A stretch of 52,258 nucleotides of DNA from a virus (Duplodnaviria > Heunggongvirae > Uroviricota > Caudoviricetes): the IMG/VR virus record IMGVR_UViG_2721755660_000011. One strand, written 5' to 3'. Every line of letters begins with the position of its first letter. The stretch's first letter is position 1. Below, piece after piece: positions 26,853 through 43,993 of this stretch. Made by a program: the position numbers and the translations under genes. The notes below the pieces were generated by a model. The model made no database searches. It was not told the origin of the DNA and saw only the letters and a program-made list of their open reading frames with translations.

Positions 26853-26891
26853 TGTTCATTCGTAAGCGGCTCGCCAGAACCGTATTGATAT

Positions 26892-28463
26892 TTACTGAGA
26901 GGTCAGATCAACTTTCCAGGGCAACAGATCGCGTACCCGGTTTGCCGGCCAGTCCTGGATATGCTCAATGACGTAACGCAGCCATTTTTCTGGTTCCACA
27001 TTGTTCAGACGGCATGTGCCGATCAGCGAGTACAACACCGCCGCATGTTCGCCACCGCTGTCGGAACCCGCGAAGAGCCAGTTTTTCCGGCCTACGGCCA
27101 CTCCCCGTAAGGCGTTCTCTGCGATGTTGTTGTCGATTTCCACCTGGCCATTACTGCAGTACACGTTCAGGCCATCCCACTGTTTCAGCAGGTATGCGAA
27201 CGCTTTTGCCGTATCCGAGTGACGCGACAGTGTTTTCATCTGAGTCTGTATCCAGTCATACAGTGACTGCATCAGTGGCGCAGCTCTGGCTTTTCTTGCC
27301 GCCAGACGCTGTTCTGCTGTACATCCCCGGACTTCTGCCTCTATGGCATACAGTTCACCGATACGCTGCAGGGCTTCCGTGGTGATGTCGGTGGGCACTC
27401 TTGCATGCACATCGTGGATTTTTCTCCGGGCATGAGCCATACACGCGGCTTCCGTTATTCTGCCGGATTCGTATAACACCCGGTAACCACCGTAAGCATC
27501 GGCCTGAAGCACACCGCTGTAACCGGCCAGATGATTCTGTGGATGGACGCCTTTCCGGTCCGGGCTGTACGCGAACCAGACCGCCGGAGGCATCTGTGAA
27601 CCGGCGTTACGGTCATCACGGACGTAGACCCACAGCCGGGCAGTCCTTGTTTTACCACTGCCCGGCTCCTGGACCGGGACGGGGATATCATCGGCATGGA
27701 CTTTACCGGGCATCAGCACATACTGGCGCAGGACGTCATACAGCGGCTCCAGCAGTTCAGCAACGGCACCTGTCCAGCGCCCCAGCGTGGCGCGGCTCAG
27801 CTCCACGCCCTGGCGACGGTATATTTCTGACTGGCGGTATAACGGCAGATGGTCTGCATATTTCCCGGTGACAACATGGGCCAGAAGCCCCGCTCCGGCA
27901 TAACTGCGTGCAATGGGTTTTGAAGGTACTGGTGCCTGCACGATATGGTCGCACCGGCAACAGGCCAGTTTCGGACGTTGTGCTTCGATAACCTTAAAGG
28001 CGCTGCTGATAAGCTCCAGTTGCTCTGACACATCACATCCCAGAGAACTGAGTTCGCCACCACAGGCCGGGCAGCATTCCTCTTCCGGCCGGATAACCCG
28101 GGTTTCACGGGGAAGTGAGGTCGGTAACGGTTTACGGGCAGAAGACTGGCGCAGGGGGGATGGCAGTGCCGGGTCATATTGCTCACCCAGCGTTTCTGCC
28201 ATTTCTTCCTGAAGTGCGCTGATTCGCTCCTGTGCTTCCTGTATCTGCCGTTCGGTTTTTGCACGAAGTTTTTCTGAGCTTTTACCGAACTGCATACGCT
28301 GCAGTTTCGCAACCAGCGCCTTCAGCCGGTTGATTTCGGAAGCATAAGCCGCCACCCGCTGTGAGAGCAGGCGGTTGTATTCAGCCATCTGGCGGATGGT
28401 GTCCTGTTGTGTCTGCAACAGTGCCCGCAGGCGGGCATTCTCATGAGCAAGTGAGGTGTCCAT
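26892..28463 (-). CDS. IS66-family transposase TnpC
   Basis: 523 aa; N-terminal coiled-coil region then CxxC...CxxC zinc-binding and DDE domain typical of IS66 TnpC. Confidence 0.85.
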
Positions 28464-28482
28464 ATCCTCACTTTACATCGGG

Positions 28483-28830
28483 TTATATGCGGATTCCAGC
28501 GCGTTCCGTTCGTTTCGGGTGCTTCCAGTTGATGCCCTCAAGAAGCATGGACAACTGAGCCGGAGTAAGGTGAACCTTTCCATCGCGGGTGACCGGCCAG
28601 ACGAAGCGGCCCCGCTCCAGGCGTTTGGTGAAGAGGCACAGTCCGTCGCTGTCAGCCCACAACACTTTTATCTGGTCACCCCGGCGTCCGCGGAAGATGA
28701 ACAGATGCCCGGAGAACGGGTCATCCTTCAGGACGTTCTGAACTTTTGATGCCAGGCCGTTAAAACCATTTCGCATGTCGGTGATACCGGCAACCAGCCA
28801 GATACGTGAACCGGCAGGGAGAGATATCAT
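28483..28830 (-). CDS. IS66-family accessory protein TnpB
   Basis: 115 aa, MISLPAGSRIWLVAGITDMRNGFNGL... typical IS66 orfB product. Confidence 0.85.
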   Translation of the reverse strand: MISLPAGSRIWLVAGITDMRNGFNGLASKVQNVLKDDPFSGHLFIFRGRRGDQIKVLWADSDGLCLFTKRLERGRFVWPVTRDGKVHLTPAQLSMLLEGINWKHPKRTERAGIRI

Positions 28831-29480
28831 CAGTGGCTGCTCCCTTTCATTTCGCGGATAAGTGTCTGTAATAACGCCGGTGTCAGTTCACCTTTCAGCC
28901 TGAGAGTTCCGGCCGGCAGAACCAGCTCGCAGCACAGACTGTCTGGCAGTGTATTTATCTGTTCAGGTATCTGCACTGGTGCCGGGATTTTATTATCCGG
29001 CTCCGGAGTTAACGTCACGGGAAGTAGCGATGTTTCATGTTCGCCGGGCGGCTGCAGGCCGCCGTTACGCCAGAGATGCCGCCAGTTAAAGAGCAGGTTA
29101 TCGTTGATTCCGTTCTCACGAGCTATTTGTGCGACACAGGCACCGGGTAAAAGAGTCCGCTGAACAAGTCTCCATTTAAACTCCGGTGAAAATCGGTTCC
29201 GGCGGGGTTTCTCTGCTTTCACAGGCTGAGTCACGGTCGGGGTTGAAGGATATCGCCCCGGGAAAAGAGCCCGGGCCAGTTGCCCGCAGGAATATTCACC
29301 GGAAAGGGGCCAGTCAGTGAATACCTGGTGAAATCGCCTCACCAGAGAAAAAATGGCGGTTTTGCTGACACCAGTCTGCGCAGAAATGCGCGGGTACGAC
29401 AGTGACTCGTCAAATCTCAGCTGTAGCACACGCAGGATCAATTCCGGATTATCTGCCAATACCGCCTTTCGTGCATTCAT
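28830..29480 (-). CDS. IS66-family accessory protein TnpA
   Basis: 216 aa, HTH-containing IS66 orfA-like protein; start-overlaps tnpB stop. Confidence 0.75.
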   Translation of the reverse strand: MNARKAVLADNPELILRVLQLRFDESLSYPRISAQTGVSKTAIFSLVRRFHQVFTDWPLSGEYSCGQLARALFPGRYPSTPTVTQPVKAEKPRRNRFSPEFKWRLVQRTLLPGACVAQIARENGINDNLLFNWRHLWRNGGLQPPGEHETSLLPVTLTPEPDNKIPAPVQIPEQINTLPDSLCCELVLPAGTLRLKGELTPALLQTLIREMKGSSH

Positions 29481-32974: not shown

Positions 32975-33051
32975 TGGCGCGTTGTACTGGATTCGAACCA
33001 GTGACCGATTGCTTAGAAGGCAATTGCTCTGTCCGACTGAGCTAACAACGC
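32975..33051 (-). tRNA. tRNA-Arg (anticodon UCU), phage-encoded (argO/argN-like)
   Basis: Reverse complement GCGTTGTTAGCTCAGTCGGACAGAGCAATTGCCTTCTAAGCAATCGGTCACTGGTTCGAATCCAGTACAACGCGCCA folds as canonical cloverleaf; anticodon loop CTTCTAA. Confidence 0.8.
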
Positions 33052-33064
33052 ATGATGCAGATAA

Positions 33065-33145
33065 TGGACCGCCATCGAGGACTCGAACCCCGCACCAACA
33101 ACCCTGTTATCGTGTCGTCTGCTCTTCCTGATGAGCTAATGGCGG
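33065..33145 (-). tRNA. tRNA-like gene with noncanonical anticodon arm (possible argN-like or pseudo-tRNA)
   Basis: Reverse complement has a good acceptor stem (CCGCCAT / ATGGCGG), D-arm (GCTC...GAGC), T-arm (CGGGG TTCGAGT CCTCG) and CCA, but I could not fold a standard 5 bp / 7 nt anticodon arm by hand; 81 nt. Confidence 0.4.
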
Positions 33146-33152
33146 TATGTTA

Positions 33153-33228
33153 TGGTGGCCCTTGCTGGATTTGAACCAGCGACCTGGCGATTATGAGTCG
33201 CTCGCTCTCACCACTGAGCTAAAGGGCC
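33153..33228 (-). tRNA. tRNA-Ile2-like (anticodon CAU), phage-encoded (ileZ-like)
   Basis: Reverse complement GGCCCTTTAGCTCAGTGGTGAGAGCGAGCGACTCATAATCGCCAGGTCGCTGGTTCAAATCCAGCAAGGGCCACCA closely resembles E. coli ileX-type tRNA; anticodon loop CTCATAA. Confidence 0.8.
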
Positions 33229-33268
33229 GGGCGCAGGATAATAACGGTACATAACTAATTCTGCAATA

Positions 33269-38490: not shown

Positions 38491-39829
38491 CATAAGCGCT
38501 AACTTAAGGGTTGAACCATCTGAAGAATGCGACGCCTCGGTGCCTCGTTAAGACGATGCCTCGCGTTCTTCAATTGCGTTTTGTAGGCTGTCAGGGATAC
38601 TGTCCCACGAATGGCCACCTGTAAGCTCCAGATGACCATTTTTGTTATTCTCCACAACGAGTTAGTTCTTCTTTTCGGATCCGGCACTTCTGGGGGGGAA
38701 ATCCAGCGATGGCTGGATTATGTCGTCAATTAAAAATGCGGCGAGTAGATTAGCAAATATCCACGCTTTCGCGAGTTCAGGTTCCTTTGCACGCAAAGCA
38801 TCCAGGTGCAGCAAACTTTTGAGCCGCTTAAAAGCCAGTTCAATTTGCCATCGCAGACGGTAACAATCAGCCACTTGCTCTGCTGAATATTCATCTTCCG
38901 GTAATGATGTTAGCAATAGCACATGGCCCGCTGCTTCCAGCGTTTCCGCCTGAACTACTCGTCCTTTTCGACGATTCTCGCTGAGCAGTCGGGTTTTACT
39001 GATTAATGCTTTTTCGGGAGGAAGTGATACGGCAATGAGACGTGCCGGAAAGGGAGCTCCGGCTTTTTTATTACCTGAATTGCCTATCATTACAGTGGTT
39101 TCACCGTTCTTACCGCAATCCAGCCCGCGCAGAAAACCCATCATGTCAAAGCGCATTCCTTCTGCAGTTAACCAGCGCAATCCTCGCCAGTGAACCCGGA
39201 CGATATAATCAGCTTCTCCAAAAGCAAGTGAGCGGATACATTCGGGACGCGAACCGAATCCCCGGTCAGCAATGCGTATCTCGTCTGCCGTTTGCGCAAA
39301 TCGGTCCAGCCGTTCAGCGTCTCTGCTGTCGGTTAGCTCAAAATCAGTGAACTGACAGGTATGAGGATCATATCCCATATGTAGTCGCCATTCAGCGCTG
39401 CCGCCCCCGGGCGCACTGATTGCTGTTCCATCGACAAGACGCAATCTCTTTCCGCTTGTACAACCCGTAACTGCGGCGCGTACAGCAAGTGTTTGTGCGG
39501 CAAGTATGCCAAACCAGTCGGCGGCATTCCGCAGCCGCTTCAGGAGAGCCACGTCAGATAATGTTGCAACGTCATGGAGCTGAGCCCATGCAGTGACTTC
39601 ACGTAATGACATCCCCCCGGGGCCGTAAGCCAGCCCCAGACGTAGCAGAGTTGCAGCATCACGAATTTCGCGGCGGCGGGTTAGAGCCCCGGCATTACGT
39701 GCCGAAGTATCCAGTTCTTCGGGCTTACCAATATGGGCCAGAATTGCTGACCAGTTATCGTGAGAGTAATTCATCGGCACGTTAAATCATATCAGGCGTA
39801 ATACCACAACCCTTAAGTTAGCGCTTATG
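38491..39829 (-). mobile_element. IS186 insertion sequence
   Basis: Terminal inverted repeats cataagcgctaacttaagggttg (38491..38513) and its reverse complement (39808..39829); 1339 bp; single transposase ORF; flanked by 10 bp direct repeat. Confidence 0.9.
38662..39780 (-). CDS. IS186 (IS4-family) transposase
   Basis: 372 aa ORF (MNYSHDNWSAILAHIGKPEELDTSARNAGALTRRREIRDAATLLRLGLAYG...) matches my recollection of IS186 transposase. Confidence 0.9.
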   Translation of the reverse strand: MPMNYSHDNWSAILAHIGKPEELDTSARNAGALTRRREIRDAATLLRLGLAYGPGGMSLREVTAWAQLHDVATLSDVALLKRLRNAADWFGILAAQTLAVRAAVTGCTSGKRLRLVDGTAISAPGGGSAEWRLHMGYDPHTCQFTDFELTDSRDAERLDRFAQTADEIRIADRGFGSRPECIRSLAFGEADYIVRVHWRGLRWLTAEGMRFDMMGFLRGLDCGKNGETTVMIGNSGNKKAGAPFPARLIAVSLPPEKALISKTRLLSENRRKGRVVQAETLEAAGHVLLLTSLPEDEYSAEQVADCYRLRWQIELAFKRLKSLLHLDALRAKEPELAKAWIFANLLAAFLIDDIIQPSLDFPPRSAGSEKKN

Positions 39830-39839
39830 TCCCACACCC
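39830..39839. repeat. IS186 target site duplication, right copy (tcccacaccc)
   Basis: See left copy. Confidence 0.75.
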
Positions 39840-40103
39840 CCGCGTGGGTCAGGGCGTCAAACAGCGCCTTGTTATAGTTGTCCAGATCGCGGATCCGGTT
39901 ATCCGGAGGAAACAACACGATCTCCACTGAAGCAGGTGCCGACGTTGGTTTCGGCAGACGACGTAACTGCTCAACTATTGCTGCGCACGCCGCGCTCTGG
40001 AATTTTCGCCCCGCCGCGCTTATCAGGCTCTTACCAGCAAACGCCCCTTTGTTGGGGTGTCGCCAGTACGTGTTCACGCTGGGCGGGAAAGGCAGTATTA
40101 GCT

Positions 40104-40463
40104 TCATACTTTCAGGCCCCTCTCATGTAACCAGTGGGTTGCACGCAGCCTGGCGTTTTCCTCACCGGCAAGCAGTGAGCGGATAATCCCGACCGCCTCG
40201 CTGTCGTCGTCCTTCACCGCGGTATGAAGCGTTATCCCCCGGGCCACACCACGCTTTATCGTGATGACGCCTTTTTTCTCCAGTGCGCGAAGATGCTCCA
40301 CCGCTGCATTCACTGAACGGTATCCCAGCATGGTTGCCACCTCCTGATTGGTTGGCGGGAAGCCACGTTCTTTCTGGTAAGAAATCAGCATATCCAGCAC
40401 CTGCTGCTGGCATTGAGTTAACGTCGTCATTAAGCCCCCACGTAATTGCCTGACAGATACCAC
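40104..40463 (-). CDS. LexA-N-terminal-like winged-helix DNA-binding protein
   Basis: 119 aa; segment QQQVLDMLISYQKERGFPPTNQEVATMLGYRSVNAAVEHLRALEKKGVI resembles the LexA DNA-binding domain; no peptidase domain. Confidence 0.5.
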   Translation of the reverse strand: MVSVRQLRGGLMTTLTQCQQQVLDMLISYQKERGFPPTNQEVATMLGYRSVNAAVEHLRALEKKGVITIKRGVARGITLHTAVKDDDSEAVGIIRSLLAGEENARLRATHWLHERGLKV

Positions 40464-40918
40464 TCTTCACCCGATGCAGCGCGCTTGCTGCTTTTCCGTA
40501 AGCACCGCTCACGACGCGCCAGAAAATTGTTTCGTTCTGGCTTGGAGTGGCTTTCACGGAATGCCGCCATCCACACGGTTGCAGCACGACGAAATAAGCC
40601 CCTGGACTCCAGTTCTTCCGCCTGGCGGGTCAGGCACAAAATCACCCGTGGATCGTTAGTGCCGACATAGAAATTGCGCACAGGTCTGGTTTCACGAACT
40701 GGTTGTGGTTCCGGCTCCTGCGCTCTCTCAGTCAGGCGTGGGAAATGTCTGCGTGTATCTCCTTCACAACGGTGAGCCACACGCCCACTCTGACGTAACT
40801 TGCTTGCTGACTGCAGAACGCGCTGTCGTGAGTAACCAGCAAAAGCATCCGCAATGTCTCCTGAAGTACACCCCGGATGGGCTTCAATGAATTTCTGAAC
40901 TTCATTCAAAAGACTCAT
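40430..40918 (-). CDS. Hypothetical regulator with PerC-like C-terminal motif
   Basis: 162 aa; C-terminal segment AEELESRGLFRRAATVWMAAF resembles the conserved PerC/Pch-family motif as I recall it; N-terminal winged-helix-like region. Low-confidence family call. Confidence 0.35.
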   Translation of the reverse strand: MSLLNEVQKFIEAHPGCTSGDIADAFAGYSRQRVLQSASKLRQSGRVAHRCEGDTRRHFPRLTERAQEPEPQPVRETRPVRNFYVGTNDPRVILCLTRQAEELESRGLFRRAATVWMAAFRESHSKPERNNFLARRERCLRKSSKRAASGEEWYLSGNYVGA

Positions 40919-41739
40919 AATCCCCCCCTGAATCCTGCCGGGATCTGGCTGTAGTCCACGTTGTCGTAACTGGCTTTGAAGTACGGGTCCTCGCGTCTGG
41001 CTGCAGATACCGCAGGAACTTCCCAGGATTCTTCGAAATGACGATCCGGACCAAAGAACGTGACAGCCTGTTTCACAAATTGTGTGCCGCTGTTACCCAT
41101 CGCAGATACCCAGCCCGCGTAGCGTTTCACACCTTCCAGCATGGTTTCGGGGTTTACCCCCTCATTCAAACGGGCTTTCCAGGCTTTGAAGGCTGCAGAT
41201 TTTGAATTGCCACCAGCACGTTTGGGATAGGCCAGCCATGCCTGCTCAAACTCCGGAGAGTATTCCGGTCGGTTTGAACGAACTCGCACAGACTCATCAG
41301 CAGATGCACCAACAGCTATTGGTTCATTGACTGGTTCTTTGACTGGTTCAAAAGAGTGACTGGTTCTGGGTGAATCTCCTGCACTACCCCCTGGTGCAAC
41401 TCCTGCACTACCTGGTGAATTTGCTGCACCAGATAGTGAATTATTTGCACTACCCCCTAGTGAATCTCCTGCACCATCAAGATGAAGGAGATAGATATTA
41501 CTTGAGTTACCTTTTTCACCTTTCCGGGTGACTTTTTTTACCAGCCCAGACTCACAAAGGGCCGCAATATGATTCATCACAGAACGTTTGCTAATCTCGC
41601 ACTGGTCAGCAATATGCTGGTAGCTGGGCCAGCACTCCCCCTGATCGCTGGCATTATCAGCCAGCTTGATCAGAACCAGTTTTCGCAATGGATTACCCAC
41701 TCGAATTTTCATCGCTTTAACCATCAGCTCCATACTCAT
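40915..41739 (-). CDS. Replication initiator (O-like, HTH N-terminus, internal repeat array)
   Basis: 274 aa; N-terminal HTH; central Gly/Ser/Ala-rich linker encoded by DNA repeats; position downstream of cro/cII-like genes matches lambda O. Confidence 0.6.
   Translation of the reverse strand: MSMELMVKAMKIRVGNPLRKLVLIKLADNASDQGECWPSYQHIADQCEISKRSVMNHIAALCESGLVKKVTRKGEKGNSSNIYLLHLDGAGDSLGGSANNSLSGAANSPGSAGVAPGGSAGDSPRTSHSFEPVKEPVNEPIAVGASADESVRVRSNRPEYSPEFEQAWLAYPKRAGGNSKSAAFKAWKARLNEGVNPETMLEGVKRYAGWVSAMGNSGTQFVKQAVTFFGPDRHFEESWEVPAVSAARREDPYFKASYDNVDYSQIPAGFRGGL
41369..41476. repeat. Iteron-like direct repeats inside replication initiator gene (putative ori)
   Basis: Four to five copies of a roughly 20-24 bp motif (tgcactacc...gtgaat...) e.g. 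gtgaatctcctgcac at 41369 and 41459, ctgcactacc repeated three times. Confidence 0.55.
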
Positions 41740-41960
41740 GCTGCACCTCCGAGATGCTTCATGTTTTTTCCGGAGCGAAAGGCTATAAGCGGCATACTGA
41801 CGCGGTAATTACGGCCCAGCGGTTCACAAATCACCTTCTGACATTCACGGTCAACCAGGCTAACACGTAGAACATGCCCTGCTGGCGTGGTGTACCACTG
41901 ACCGGGGAGAGGACAACGGAAAGTCTGATTGGTAAATCGTTTGAAAATATTCCGGATCAT
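41736..41960 (-). CDS. Hypothetical small protein (74 aa)
   Basis: ORF with ATGA start/stop overlaps to both neighbours (translational coupling). Confidence 0.4.
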   Translation of the reverse strand: MIRNIFKRFTNQTFRCPLPGQWYTTPAGHVLRVSLVDRECQKVICEPLGRNYRVSMPLIAFRSGKNMKHLGGAA

Positions 41961-43120
41961 TTACGCCCCCTTACCTCTGAAGAGTTCAGCGACGAATGAA
42001 TAAGACGGGCAAGAAATGCCGCATCGTTAATTCGGTCATACAGACTTACAGCCAGCGGTGATTCAGCTTTTTCCAGCATGGGATAAAGCTGCTGCAACCA
42101 GACCTGATGAATTGATGAAATGTAGGAATAGAGTACGCTGGCGTTATGTGCAACGTCGCTCGGTACAGCGGGCTTTGAAAGCTGTTTCTCCATCTGGTTA
42201 AAGGCATTGATGTATGCCTCCTTGAACTGGGCTGCACGTTTGCCAGTGAAGCCCATTGCCAAGAACGCGAAGCCGTCGCGGGTGATGTGGTAGCAAGGAA
42301 GTTTGCGAGTACCGCCGTTGGGCTGGTGTACCAAAATTGATGTCTCCGCAAAATTGCGGGCACAAAACTCTGGAGAACAATCCAAAATGCGGATCTTTTT
42401 CAGAACATCGTCATGACGTTTAGAGAAGAAGTCAGCAACAGCCAAAGAAGATGTAACAGCCTGACCATCAACGATGGCAATTTCAGGTTGAGAGAGGGTT
42501 GGGAGAGTAGTCATGGTGACAGCCCCGGTAGTCAGTTTTTCAGAAAACTCACCACATGGGACGCCAATCACAGAGGTGGTGAGACGTACAGGGTTGGCGT
42601 TACCGGAGACTACCGAACCCGGCCCGACCGAAGTCGGCCCTGTACGCCCCACCATAATTTGGGCGTAGCAATGCTCATGACACGAAAAAACCGCATGAGC
42701 GCGGTTATGCTCAGTAATCAATTTCAGGACGCCAATCCCGGCACCCGTTTTATAAGGTGCCTGAACAGTGTAACGTCCCGGAATGGCAGAATCAATGTGC
42801 TGGTGGTCCTTCACACTCAACAAAATCACGCCTGAATTTCCACAAAGGACTAAAGCACTCATGCGGGTAGTCTTTGCGAAGATAGATAACGCGCTGTGTA
42901 TCTGGTTCCCAACGAATAACATGGACATAAAGCCCTCTTCCGTCACGAAACCAGCGGTTAAGTTCCTGCACAACTCGCCCCCCACAGTCAGGTAAAGTTC
43001 TCTGTGGTTACTTACAGCCAGGTGATTTGGTAATCTGCATTCATGCCGTAACAACAGGAGTTCAGCGACGCTGACCACCAGCTGTTGCGACAAACGGTTA
43101 TTTGCCGTTAAACTGTTCAT
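41957..43120 (-). CDS. Rha-family (ORF6N domain) phage regulatory protein with unusual ~200 aa N-terminal extension
   Basis: 387 aa; residues from about 205 (EIAIVDGQAVTSSLAVADFFSKRHDDVLKKIRILD...) resemble Rha domain; ATG at 43120 overlaps upstream stop as ATGA, supporting the long form. Confidence 0.5.
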   Translation of the reverse strand: MNSLTANNRLSQQLVVSVAELLLLRHECRLPNHLAVSNHRELYLTVGGELCRNLTAGFVTEEGFMSMLFVGNQIHSALSIFAKTTRMSALVLCGNSGVILLSVKDHQHIDSAIPGRYTVQAPYKTGAGIGVLKLITEHNRAHAVFSCHEHCYAQIMVGRTGPTSVGPGSVVSGNANPVRLTTSVIGVPCGEFSEKLTTGAVTMTTLPTLSQPEIAIVDGQAVTSSLAVADFFSKRHDDVLKKIRILDCSPEFCARNFAETSILVHQPNGGTRKLPCYHITRDGFAFLAMGFTGKRAAQFKEAYINAFNQMEKQLSKPAVPSDVAHNASVLYSYISSIHQVWLQQLYPMLEKAESPLAVSLYDRINDAAFLARLIHSSLNSSEVRGRK

Positions 43121-43746
43121 GCGTTAGTTTCTCCACAGACACAAAACGCCACGACGCCCGGAGCTGCACACTCGCGGGCGTCACTCTTTTCTGGAGCGCA
43201 AAAGATTTTGTAGACCAGTGCTGCATGCTCCTGGAGCTTCGAAATTGACAGATACAACTCATCATTAATTGCTGTCTGCTCGTGTGGCTCCACTACCCCA
43301 TCTTCGATTGCCGAACGAATCTGCTTTGAGTAACTCCCGATCTGTTCGATGACTTCCAGCAGGCGCTGGTTTATATCGGCGTTCTCTACTTCCTCAATTT
43401 CAGGAAGCGATACGAACACCCCACCAGCAGACTGTGCGACAGCATCCGCAATGTAGTGAGTGCCAGCTGCGCGCTGTAAAACCATTGCCCATCCCAGCGG
43501 GAAAATCTGATCGCCATCGGCACGAAGGCGGTTAAATAATGCGTTCTCTGTTACATCCAGCCAGTCAGCAGCTTCAGCGTAACCACCCGGCAACGCCGCG
43601 ATAGTTTTTCTGACAGCTTTCACGTACCACTCAGGCTGTTTTTCTACTTTCCAGTGATGCTTACCCACGGTTAACTCCTCGTTTCTGTGGTTACGTTTAC
43701 GCAACTGAACCGCTAACTTTTGAATAGCACTCTGGTAATCCATCAT
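43117..43746 (-). CDS. CII-position regulatory protein (possibly YdaT-family)
   Basis: ORF directly downstream of cro; start uncertain (ORF track gives 43779; internal Met at 43746); family call by position. Confidence 0.35.
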   Translation of the reverse strand: MMDYQSAIQKLAVQLRKRNHRNEELTVGKHHWKVEKQPEWYVKAVRKTIAALPGGYAEAADWLDVTENALFNRLRADGDQIFPLGWAMVLQRAAGTHYIADAVAQSAGGVFVSLPEIEEVENADINQRLLEVIEQIGSYSKQIRSAIEDGVVEPHEQTAINDELYLSISKLQEHAALVYKIFCAPEKSDARECAAPGVVAFCVCGETNA

Positions 43747-43960
43747 TTGGATTTGGATAAATATCAGGACGCAGCTCATGGGGGGTTACGGACCAGTTCC
43801 CCAGCTCACAAAGTTGTAAAACTCGTTCCGACGGGACTTGATTGTTAATTACCCAATTAGCGACAGATTGAGTAGATTTAAAACCAAAGCGACGAGCTAC
43901 TTCAGATAAAGACTTTCCCGCAGCCTTTACTGCTTTCTCGGTGTAGTTTTGAGATGACAT
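43697..43960 (-). CDS. cro: Cro-like repressor (HTH)
   Basis: 87 aa HTH protein divergent from cI across an operator-containing intergenic region. Confidence 0.7.
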   Translation of the reverse strand: MSSQNYTEKAVKAAGKSLSEVARRFGFKSTQSVANWVINNQVPSERVLQLCELGNWSVTPHELRPDIYPNPNDGLPECYSKVSGSVA

Positions 43961-43993
43961 ATCTTTCTCCTCTGAAATCCAGAGGGGATAATG

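Follow-up and report, generated by a model that had tools for sequence, protein, structure and literature searches.

How a prophage can start replicating its DNA with an initiator gene and neither a helicase gene nor a helicase-loader gene beside it is the question raised by a 52,258-nucleotide stretch of DNA from a virus of the Caudoviricetes (IMG/VR record IMGVR_UViG_2721755660_000011), to which we refer as the window. The element in question is a replication initiator gene (40915..41739, minus strand) with an internal array of direct repeats. A preliminary description of the sequence had offered two answers: either the phage relies entirely on loaders of the host, or its replication module is truncated, as would fit a defective prophage. 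The best explanation overall, to which we assign a probability of about 0.68, is that the gene forms the complete, single-gene replication module of a lambdoid prophage of the SfV/mEp460 type ("Eru6"), which would recruit the DnaB·DnaC complex of the host. The locus is a known and very common module of Escherichia coli prophages, wrongly suspected of being defective. New here are the comparative case for the repeats as iterons and the co-variation of a DnaT-like tail of the initiator with the type of loader encoded next to it; the locus itself is ordinary.

A replication module without a loader gene

The initiator gene encodes a protein of 274 amino acids (aa), composed of an N-terminal winged helix-turn-helix (wHTH) domain of the HTH_36 family, a linker encoded by the repeats, and a C-terminal domain and tail that appear related to the host protein DnaT. 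The Pfam model HTH_36 matches aa 17-67 (E 1.8e-11; 44.1 bits, with a cut-off of 25), the whole protein matches PHROG 270, "replication initiation protein" (E 1e-88), and proteins annotated as "replication protein" in mEp460, PhiR47_1, and Stx2c phages are 97-99% identical to it. The predicted origin-binding domain comprises aa 1-88 (41476..41739, minus strand). A Pfam scan at E ≤ 0.01 matched HTH_36, DnaD_N, B-block_TFIIIC, and HTH_20 and nothing else; the match to DnaD_N is weak (24.3 bits, under the cut-off of 27), and DnaB_2 was unmatched. As the same scan gave no match to Phage_rep_O, the gene is O-like by analogy alone.

The adjoining genes had been described as small regulators rather than a loader or a helicase, which holds true: they are ORFs (open reading frames) of the PerC family and with a LexA domain. 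No loader domain (DnaC/IstB AAA+, lambda P, or DciA) was detected in ten ORFs of the module with Pfam and PHROGs, or in five with NCBIfam, and the 2 genes that flank the initiator gene, at 40430..40918 and 41736..41960, yielded only a PerC/MarR-like wHTH and a PHROG of unknown function, respectively. The window is 100% identical to sequences of E. coli strains OkiPb01715 and GB089, and the Prokaryotic Genome Annotation Pipeline (PGAP) annotation of the whole identical prophage of GB089, from ompT to tRNA-Thr/proA, contains no helicase, loader, or primase.

Intact relatives show the same arrangement. Over positions 39700-44100, the window shares 94-97% nucleotide identity with mEp460, 1720a-02, phiSTEC1575-Stx2k, Stx2a_WGPS2, Stx2a_1447, PhiR phages, cdtI, and Stx2c phages, and phages that were isolated or induced (mEp460, cdtI, 1720a-02, and Stx2 phages) are among these relatives. 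The same gene order without a loader was found in the annotated regions of mEp460, 1720a-02, and cdtI, in Stx2a_WGPS2, and in PhiR55_1, the record of which gives E. coli C as host. In the complete 44.5-kb genome of mEp460, helicase, loader, and primase genes are all absent. Furthermore, of 5,426 complete E. coli genomes, 809 contain at least 80% of positions 39600-41800.

This arrangement corresponds to a published replication type, Eru6, which is defined by cI, followed by cro/cII, Rha(/Ash), and an HTH_36 protein, with helicase and primase absent (PMC8951638). Its representative is Stx2a_WGPS2 (AP012537), in which Rha and HTH_36 proteins have been noted (PMC8951638), and which is 94.2% identical to positions 39700-44100 over 88% of their length. 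The window encodes both Rha/Ash and the HTH_36 protein, while the prophage carries no stx gene, so that it matches Eru6 in replication type only. According to the literature that defined the Eru types, nothing is known about the action of their replication proteins (PMC8951638). In writing on phage replication modules, the term "initiator-solo" reportedly occurs in Weigel & Seitz 2006 (Bacteriophage replication modules).

We surveyed 160 IMG/VR loci with initiators that bear the same type of C-terminal domain, taken from a scan that was repeated from a distant first sequence, the first scan having yielded near-identical loci only. The gene after the initiator encodes an IstB/DnaC-like AAA+ protein in 62 of these loci, 39 of which additionally contain a DnaB-like helicase, and a non-loader (PerC-like or Dam) in 94. 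Loci with and without a loader are both found for the N-terminal domain of the window type (78 loci without a loader and 17 with one, sharing the same iterons and the same adjoining conserved block) and for a second type of N-terminal domain (11 and 16 loci, respectively).

These 17 loci bear on the possibility that the module is a degenerate remnant, in which an ancestral cassette of initiator, DnaC-like, and DnaB-like genes lost its loader and helicase and, with them, autonomous replication. All 17 combine the same N-terminal domain, five iterons, and 30-bp block with DnaC-like and DnaB-like genes, as such an ancestor would, and the window prophage has suffered insertions of IS421 in rusA and of an IS66-family element. 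The loader-less order, however, is that of the complete genomes of the phages named above, including PhiR55_1 on E. coli C, and occurs in the 809 complete bacterial genomes. Moreover, the last ~28 residues of the initiator switch with the loader state: the loader-less tail, EVPAVSAARREDPYFKASYDNVDYSQIPAGFRG, is 93-100% identical across the 2 types of N-terminal domain, but shares only 8-24% identity with the tails of those loader-plus proteins that resemble the window protein in their N-terminal domain (76-97% identity). It is a distinct tail, and not a loader-plus tail with the genes behind it deleted. We consider a remnant very improbable, and truncation, as suggested in the preliminary description, finds no support as far as the replication module is concerned. 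This particular copy may be inactive for other reasons, namely its IS421 and IS66 insertions and a 2-aa extension of the initiator.

A loader could also be hidden among the small neighbors of the initiator gene, if the 74-aa ORF, the PerC-like protein, the LexA-domain protein, or Rha were an unrecognized helicase loader. The 74-aa ORF (41736..41960, minus strand; PHROG 1153), which had no Pfam or NCBIfam match and is of no known function, and the gene for the PerC-family regulator (40430..40918, minus strand), which has an N-terminal MarR-like wHTH (PF06069, E 3.7e-8; PHROG 1324) and a start that overlaps the initiator stop, are both translationally coupled to the initiator gene, which speaks for this possibility. 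None of the neighboring genes encodes an ATPase or loader-like domain, however, and neither coupled gene tracks the loader-less state: the 74-aa gene lies upstream of the initiator in the 17 loader-plus loci and is absent from 13 loader-less loci, and the PerC-like gene is absent from cdtI and from 13 loader-less loci. Both were rejected as cryptic loaders, and we regard a hidden loader as hardly credible. That the phage relies entirely on host loaders, the other answer of the preliminary description, is supported by the recurrence of the loader-less order in complete phage genomes and by the DnaT-like tail discussed below.

Iterons inside the initiator gene

The repeats had been described as four to five copies encoding a Gly/Ser/Ala linker, and this was borne out by Tandem Repeats Finder, a pattern search, and comparison. 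Five 15-bp dyad cores, reading GTGCA-N5-T(T/G)CAC in gene sense, lie at 41460-41474, 41436-41450, 41415-41429, 41394-41408, and 41370-41384, with start spacings of 24, 21, 21, and 24 bp. In this order, their sequences are GTGCAGGAGATTCAC, GTGCAAATAATTCAC, GTGCAGCAAATTCAC, GTGCAGGAGTTGCAC, and again GTGCAGGAGATTCAC, all with GTG…CAC dyad ends (GTG-N9-CAC). Tandem Repeats Finder reported the array as a 24-nt unit in 4.6 copies at 41370..41474, along with a second, small repeat of 12 bp in 2.6 copies at 41320..41350. Allowing 1 mismatch, GTGCANNNNNTTCAC has 9 sites in the window, 5 of which are inside the 105-bp array.

Number, length, and spacing of the repeats are those of iteron origins, which have at least three direct repeats of 15-22 bp, in helical phase, in or near the initiator gene. 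The array occupies nt 266-370 of the gene, between the wHTH and the C-terminal domain, a placement like that in lambda O. The likeness to the lambda origin within O that was drawn in the preliminary description thus stands as regards iterons inside the gene, while the protein itself resembles O by analogy only. An origin inside the initiator gene is established in lambda O; for P22 gene 18 and for phage L it is a proposal (PMC8022706).

The array varies in copy number. Among 93 close IMG/VR relatives, 89 have five copies, three have three to four, and one (L173) has no such repeat; cdtI has 8 copies, through a 66-bp triplet duplication, and the lengths of initiators in protein databases, 242-302 aa, are consistent with such variation. 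This variation, together with repeat units of a length divisible by 3 that code for a probably disordered linker rich in Gly, Ser, and Ala, would also be expected if the repeats were a mere low-complexity coding linker, growing and shrinking by slippage, with the origin elsewhere. Against this, initiators with a homologous N-terminal domain carry three to five dyad repeats (GTG-N9-CAC and variants) at the same position and with 21-24-bp phasing, while the sequence and the encoded peptide differ. Vibrio phage D67 has three copies of GTGAy-N5-TGTCAC, Vibrio phage D56 five copies of GGTGACAGAGAGTCAC, Pectobacterium phage ZF40 four copies of CTGTGCC…CACAG, phiV039C three copies, and the "O" gene of 24B three copies of GGGGCAGGAGCTGCCCC; in Stx2_14040, an unrelated N-terminal domain goes with unrelated 23-bp repeats. 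Since dyad and position are kept while sequence and peptide are not, and the repeats change with the DNA-binding domain, they are conserved as DNA and best read as iterons. The design is, moreover, that of lambda O and of the proposal for P22 gene 18, and the early region holds no other repeat cluster or DnaA box. We give slippage no more than a slight chance. Comparison supports the reading of the array as iterons and origin well, and we infer with high confidence that the wHTH binds the iterons and that the origin lies within the gene.

The iterons adjoin, on their 3' side in gene sense, a block that is conserved at the DNA level (41321..41368): CAGAACCAGTCACTCTTTTGAACCAGTCAA(AGAACCAGTCAATGAACC), which contains three copies of GAACCAGTCA and encodes PRTSHSFEPVKEPVNE. 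Its 30-mer is identical in 86 of the 93 close relatives, and the block is near-identical in phages of E. coli, Vibrio, and Pectobacterium, in which the flanking protein is ~50-70% identical. Five phages agree in codon choice at 5 of 6 residues that are invariant in the block, including a rare AGA codon, versus 2 of 38 invariant degenerate residues in the N-terminal domain (p ~1e-4, hypergeometric estimate), and the block is therefore constrained as DNA. It lies exactly where initiators swap C-terminal domains, and it could be a site of unwinding or helicase entry, or a recombination junction at the point of domain swapping.

The iterons are flanked on their other side by a relatively A+T-rich stretch (41480..41540; G+C fraction 0.35-0.40). 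It was considered as an unwinding element and rejected, being indistinguishable from ordinary coding sequence for the conserved end of the wHTH. Neither a DnaA box (up to 1 mismatch) nor a consensus site for integration host factor was found in or near the origin, and the remainder of the early region had no DnaA box either. In the window as a whole, DnaA-box-like 9-mers (TTATCCACA, up to 1 mismatch) number 21, against 10.95 expected and a count that none of 100 shuffles reached; they are mostly on the plus strand, in the region of the tail genes.

A C-terminal part resembling DnaT

The C-terminal helical domain (aa 152-246; 41002..41286, minus strand) belongs to a large family of 4,549 clusters at 50% identity, for which no Pfam model was found. 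Neither a sequence search with the protein nor a profile search with an alignment of the domain found a relative in the PDB. A second homology search yielded short proteins or fragments only (77-182 aa), which nevertheless served for an alignment. An AlphaFold2 (AF2) model was built on an 89-sequence alignment. It has a confident core of three to four helices (predicted local distance difference test scores of 83-90), followed by a disordered tail. In BFVD, Foldseek matched the model to replisome organizers, DUF1376 proteins, phage DnaD, and a RepA-like initiator (probability 1.0, template-modeling score ~0.5). An hhalign comparison of the subfamily with GFRG tails aligned it with residues 102-179 of DnaT (probability 96%, E 1e-9), in which the three-helix bundle of the C-terminal domain comprises residues 89-153. 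Only this subfamily gave a significant alignment; for the family as a whole, the probability was 3.9% with a single DnaT sequence and 4.9% with an 81-sequence DnaT alignment. The homology of the helical core of the window protein to DnaT is thus suggestive only.

The domains of these initiators are found in various combinations. N-terminal domains 68-97% identical to that of the window protein are joined to different C-terminal domains in other initiators. Behind such combinations, ZF40 and phiV039C encode a DnaB-like helicase and 24B a primase-helicase. Conversely, C-terminal domains of the window type occur with other N-terminal domains ahead of an IstB/DnaC-like AAA+ loader (BcepIL02; Shigella phage 75/02, which represents Eru4), and, in Stx2_14040 (Eru7), ahead of a loader and a DnaB-like helicase.

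Beyond the helical domain, the protein carries the motif SQIPAGFRG (aa 264-272; 40924..40950, minus strand), followed by an extra GL. E. coli K-12 DnaT ends in …NTVSEPDSQIPPGFRG, with SQIPPGFRG as its last residues, and the window protein in …DNVDYSQIPAGFRG(GL). This tail of DnaT, …SEPD..IPPGFRG, is almost invariant in 80 species of Enterobacteriaceae. Taken in the context of its relatives, we consider the tail match of the window protein solid.

All 94 loader-less initiators end in IP[AEV]GFRG, counting one variant with GFRW and two that, like the window protein, carry the extra GL. The 18 initiators that are followed by a close homolog of DnaC, such as gp16 of phage 75/02 (51% identical to E. 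coli DnaC), all end in RD.NT[IV]S.PD..IP.GFRG, and in these sister proteins the DnaT hidden Markov model (HMM) matches the last 20-24 residues (E 3e-6 to 7e-3). By contrast, the 44 initiators that are followed by distant IstB-like loaders, 34-35% identical to DnaC, all have unrelated tails. In total, 116 tail-bearing cases were examined (94 loader-less, these 18, and 4 more with a loader), and in every one the next gene encodes a close DnaC homolog or there is no loader.

This pattern allowed a prediction for an initiator with an unrelated N-terminal domain, YdaU (DUF1376) of the Rac prophage, which as expected ends in LRQVNTVSLPDSAIPPGFRG (…IPPGFRG). In E. coli K-12, the downstream gene of the ydaU-ydaV pair (locus L257, 1620-3230) encodes YdaV, a protein that shares 50% identity with DnaC. 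When 50,697 phage records were searched by tblastn, the C-terminal 25 residues of DnaT had 47 matches. Two of these were mislabeled Salmonella chromosomes, matching through DnaT itself; the remaining annotated matches were all in replication-initiator genes (or genes with evidently misassigned names) of Escherichia, Salmonella, Klebsiella, and Shigella phages. Five matches were examined in more detail: a DnaC homolog is encoded next to the initiator in Gifsy-2 (49% identical to DnaC) and 666R9 (50%), and no loader is encoded next to it in SPN1S, BUCT711, and Tritos. The SPN1S initiator ends in FHHDQWQQKLARSVQ…RDVNAVPEPDSEIPPGFRG, which is plainly the last helix of the C-terminal domain of DnaT plus the tail. 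In the Uetakevirus phages SPN1S (Salmonella; L258, 1748-2563) and BUCT711 (Klebsiella; L260, 1829-2590), the gene with this clear helix and tail is followed by a DUF1064 gene. By sequence, these two represent another design that combines a DnaT-like end with the lack of a loader, independent of the first.

HTH_36 followed by a DnaT_C domain has been reported before, on the basis of HHpred, in DopC, an O-like protein that has been domesticated (PMC5509034). The initiator lacks the N-terminal trimerization and PriB-binding domain of DnaT, and the DnaT HMM matches it at the C-terminal end only.

Candidate partners of the DnaT-like end

In the mechanism that we propose, the HTH_36 winged helix, probably as dimers, would bind the five dyad iterons inside its own coding sequence, and the iterons and the adjoining conserved block would together form the origin, resembling the lambda origin inside O. 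The C-terminal part, a helical domain followed by the flexible tail …IP(P/A)GFRG, would be related to host DnaT, and through it the origin-bound initiator would recruit host DnaB·DnaC directly; a phage loader or helicase would not be needed for this reason. Sister phages that have their own loader, not of the DnaC type, and helicase carry a different tail. We consider that a module complete without a loader, with its origin inside the gene, is very probable, and that the chances are about even that the DnaT-like tail is what recruits DnaB·DnaC. Observed are the gene, its repeats and how they compare among relatives, the missing loader, the shared arrangement in sequenced phages, and the tail match with its co-variation; binding of the iterons, the place where unwinding starts, and the identity of the tail's partner, which may be DnaC, DnaB, or their complex, all belong to the inferred part of this scheme.

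DnaT is thought to bring DnaB/DnaC to the PriA-PriB preprimosome, by a mechanism that is stated as unknown; a contact has not been documented, and the tail is not discussed (PMC5778457; PMC13377028). Given that DnaT works in the PriA-PriB-DnaT preprimosome, where contacts with PriA and PriB are documented and one with DnaC is not (PMC5778457; PMC13377028), the tail that DnaT and the initiators have in common might instead plug the initiator into the PriA/PriB restart primosome, replacing or competing with DnaT, or it might bind a different host factor. In that case, the restart pathway would load the helicase at the phage origin. A PriA/PriB partner, however, would not lead one to expect that the tail type co-varies with the type of adjoining loader, be it a close DnaC homolog or none versus other IstB-like proteins. 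In addition, PriB binding and trimerization of DnaT map to its N-terminal residues 42-66 (PMC5778457), which the phage protein lacks. We regard such a partner as unlikely.

Several observations weigh against recruitment of DnaB·DnaC by a DnaT-like end, or against a working module in this copy. On its own, the window protein matches DnaT over the last 9 residues only (E 0.07), and it has 2 extra residues, GL, after GFRG. With the tails removed, hhalign finds the same register, but weakly (E 1.5e-3, probability 17%), and Foldseek found nothing below E = 1 in the PDB with the AF2 model of the C-terminal domain and did not recover the DnaT structures. The correlation between tail and loader reflects a handful of independent lineages (DnaT; YdaU/666R9; Gifsy; 75/02/Tritos; SPN1S; and the SfV types) and not 116 independent events. 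As all tail-bearing systems use the enterobacterial host helicase, DnaB fits as well as DnaC as the partner. A 2026 paper on the preprimosome favors DnaT's N-terminal domain for DnaB/DnaC recruitment (PMC13377028). Finally, with two insertion sequence (IS) elements, this prophage copy may no longer be active.

The extra residues arise where the TGA stop of mEp460 and 1720a-02 reads GGA in the window (40915-40923), which lengthens the initiator by 2 aa (…GFRGGL) and puts its stop further on, in an overlap with the start of the PerC-like gene. Extensions of 1-4 residues beyond GFRG also occur in natural DnaT proteins and initiators.

Neighboring genes and insertions

Upstream of the initiator and the 74-aa ORF lies the gene for the Rha/Ash regulator (41957..43120, minus strand; Pfam Phage_pRha and Phage_ASH), part of the published Eru6 signature. 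The ORF as called mechanically encodes 387 aa, where PGAP has a shorter Rha gene (966 nt) and a DUF4222 pseudogene remnant; because of this split, the 5' part of the ORF may be a product of fusion or decay. Between Rha/Ash and cI (44011..44772, plus strand) are a cro gene of the YdaS type and a cII gene of the CP76/YmfL type. Downstream of the PerC-like gene follow an ORF with a LexA DNA-binding domain only (40104..40463, minus strand; PF01726, E 3.7e-19) and rusA (39787..40107, minus strand).

The rusA gene, and with it the Holliday-junction resolvase, is truncated by IS421 (IS4 family; 38662-39786, transposase 38662..39780), which lies in its 3' part; among the best matches, only OkiPb01715 and GB089 share this insertion. 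At ~40430, the junction of the PerC-like and LexA-domain genes, the window lacks a 654-bp phage dam gene that mEp460, 1720a-02, SfV-like phages, and the majority of IMG/VR relatives have there. The arrangement without dam is also found in other E. coli genomes, without any IS element.

Farther away, an IS66-family element (tnpA, tnpB, and tnpC; ~26890-29480) separates the lysis genes from the gene for the small terminase, a second sign of decay that has no connection with the replication module, and three tRNA genes (Arg, Ile, and one unassigned; ~32975-33230) lie between a DNA methyltransferase gene and the lysis cassette. The latter is the position where Shiga toxin (Stx) phages carry tRNAs and stx; a toxin gene is absent there in the window.

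Relation to known replication systems

The closest counterparts of the module are SfV orf39, mEp460 gp43, cdtI orf46, and Eru6 in general, which share Rha, the 74-aa ORF, the HTH_36 protein, and the PerC-like gene at 94-97% nucleotide and 97-99% amino acid identity. The window copy differs in lacking dam, in its 2-aa C-terminal extension, and in the interruption of rusA by IS421. As in lambda, the initiator gene lies in the pR operon after cro/cII and has dyad iterons in the linker that joins its DNA-binding domain, at the N-terminus, to a recruitment domain at the C-terminus. In contrast to lambda, the C-terminal domain is unrelated to the P-binding domain of O, a PerC-like gene takes the place of P, and the iterons number five, with 15-bp cores, where lambda has four of 19 bp.

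With E. coli DnaT, the module shares the tail …SQIP(P/A)GFRG and a preceding helical domain that aligns with DnaT 102-179, with weak similarity in the core; an origin-binding wHTH with iterons stands in place of the trimerization and PriB-binding domain. DnaT is the factor by which stalled forks are passed on to DnaB·DnaC, and related phage initiators lie directly upstream of a DnaC homolog, as dnaT does before dnaC. DopC of Cellvibrionales and Oceanospirillales (Brezellec et al. 2017, PMC5509034) likewise combines HTH_36 and DnaT_C-like domains and originated from a phage O-like gene, but it is a domesticated chromosomal gene without iterons, paired with the lambda-P-like DopE, whereas the gene in the window is carried by a phage, contains iterons, and lacks a partner gene.

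Replisome-organizer cassettes were compared as well: SPP1 G38P-G39P-G40P, Rac YdaU-YdaV, Gifsy-2 O-DnaC, Eru4 (75/02), and Eru7 (Stx2_14040). Eru4 and Eru7 share the C-terminal domain family with the window, YdaU and Gifsy-2 share the tail, and replisome organizers, DUF1376 proteins, and phage DnaD resemble the C-terminal domain at the level of the fold (BFVD). These cassettes differ in having their own DnaC-like loader and, in Eru7, also a DnaB-like helicase, while the window type has neither. Iteron plasmids (pSC101 RepA, R6K pi, RK2 TrfA, and F RepE) make do with one initiator gene and iterons, the host supplying both helicase and loader. They differ from the window in that their Rep proteins are of the WH1/WH2 family, the iterons are not contained in the gene, and DnaA boxes are usually needed, where the window has none.

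Implications

The module is among the commonest replication modules of E. coli prophages and of Stx, cytolethal distending toxin (Cdt), and serotype-converting phages, and recognizing its completeness keeps it from being miscalled a "defective replication module". The tail coincides exactly with use of a DnaC-type loader of Enterobacteriaceae, whether encoded by the host, encoded by the phage, or borrowed by loader-less phages. Under the tail hypothesis, it would be an easily read marker in the sequence from which the dependence of a prophage on host DnaB·DnaC could be predicted.

A broader proposal, which we put forward tentatively and hold to be somewhat less than an even bet, is that the tail …IP(P/A)GFRG is a portable docking motif for enterobacterial DnaB·DnaC, found in DnaT, YdaU, and the Gifsy, 75/02, SfV, mEp460, and SPN1S types. 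If true, loader-less phages would replicate by fusing an origin-binding domain to a DnaT-like module, and this motif would also be what lets DnaT deliver DnaB/DnaC to the restart primosome. The dnaT-dnaC operon may itself descend from a phage initiator-loader cassette, as is hinted by the initiator-like/loader pair ydaU-ydaV, which mirrors it. The tail hypothesis therefore bears on both phage replication and replication restart, including how DnaT recruits DnaB/DnaC, and the co-variation of tail and loader turns an open mechanistic question into a peptide-binding experiment.

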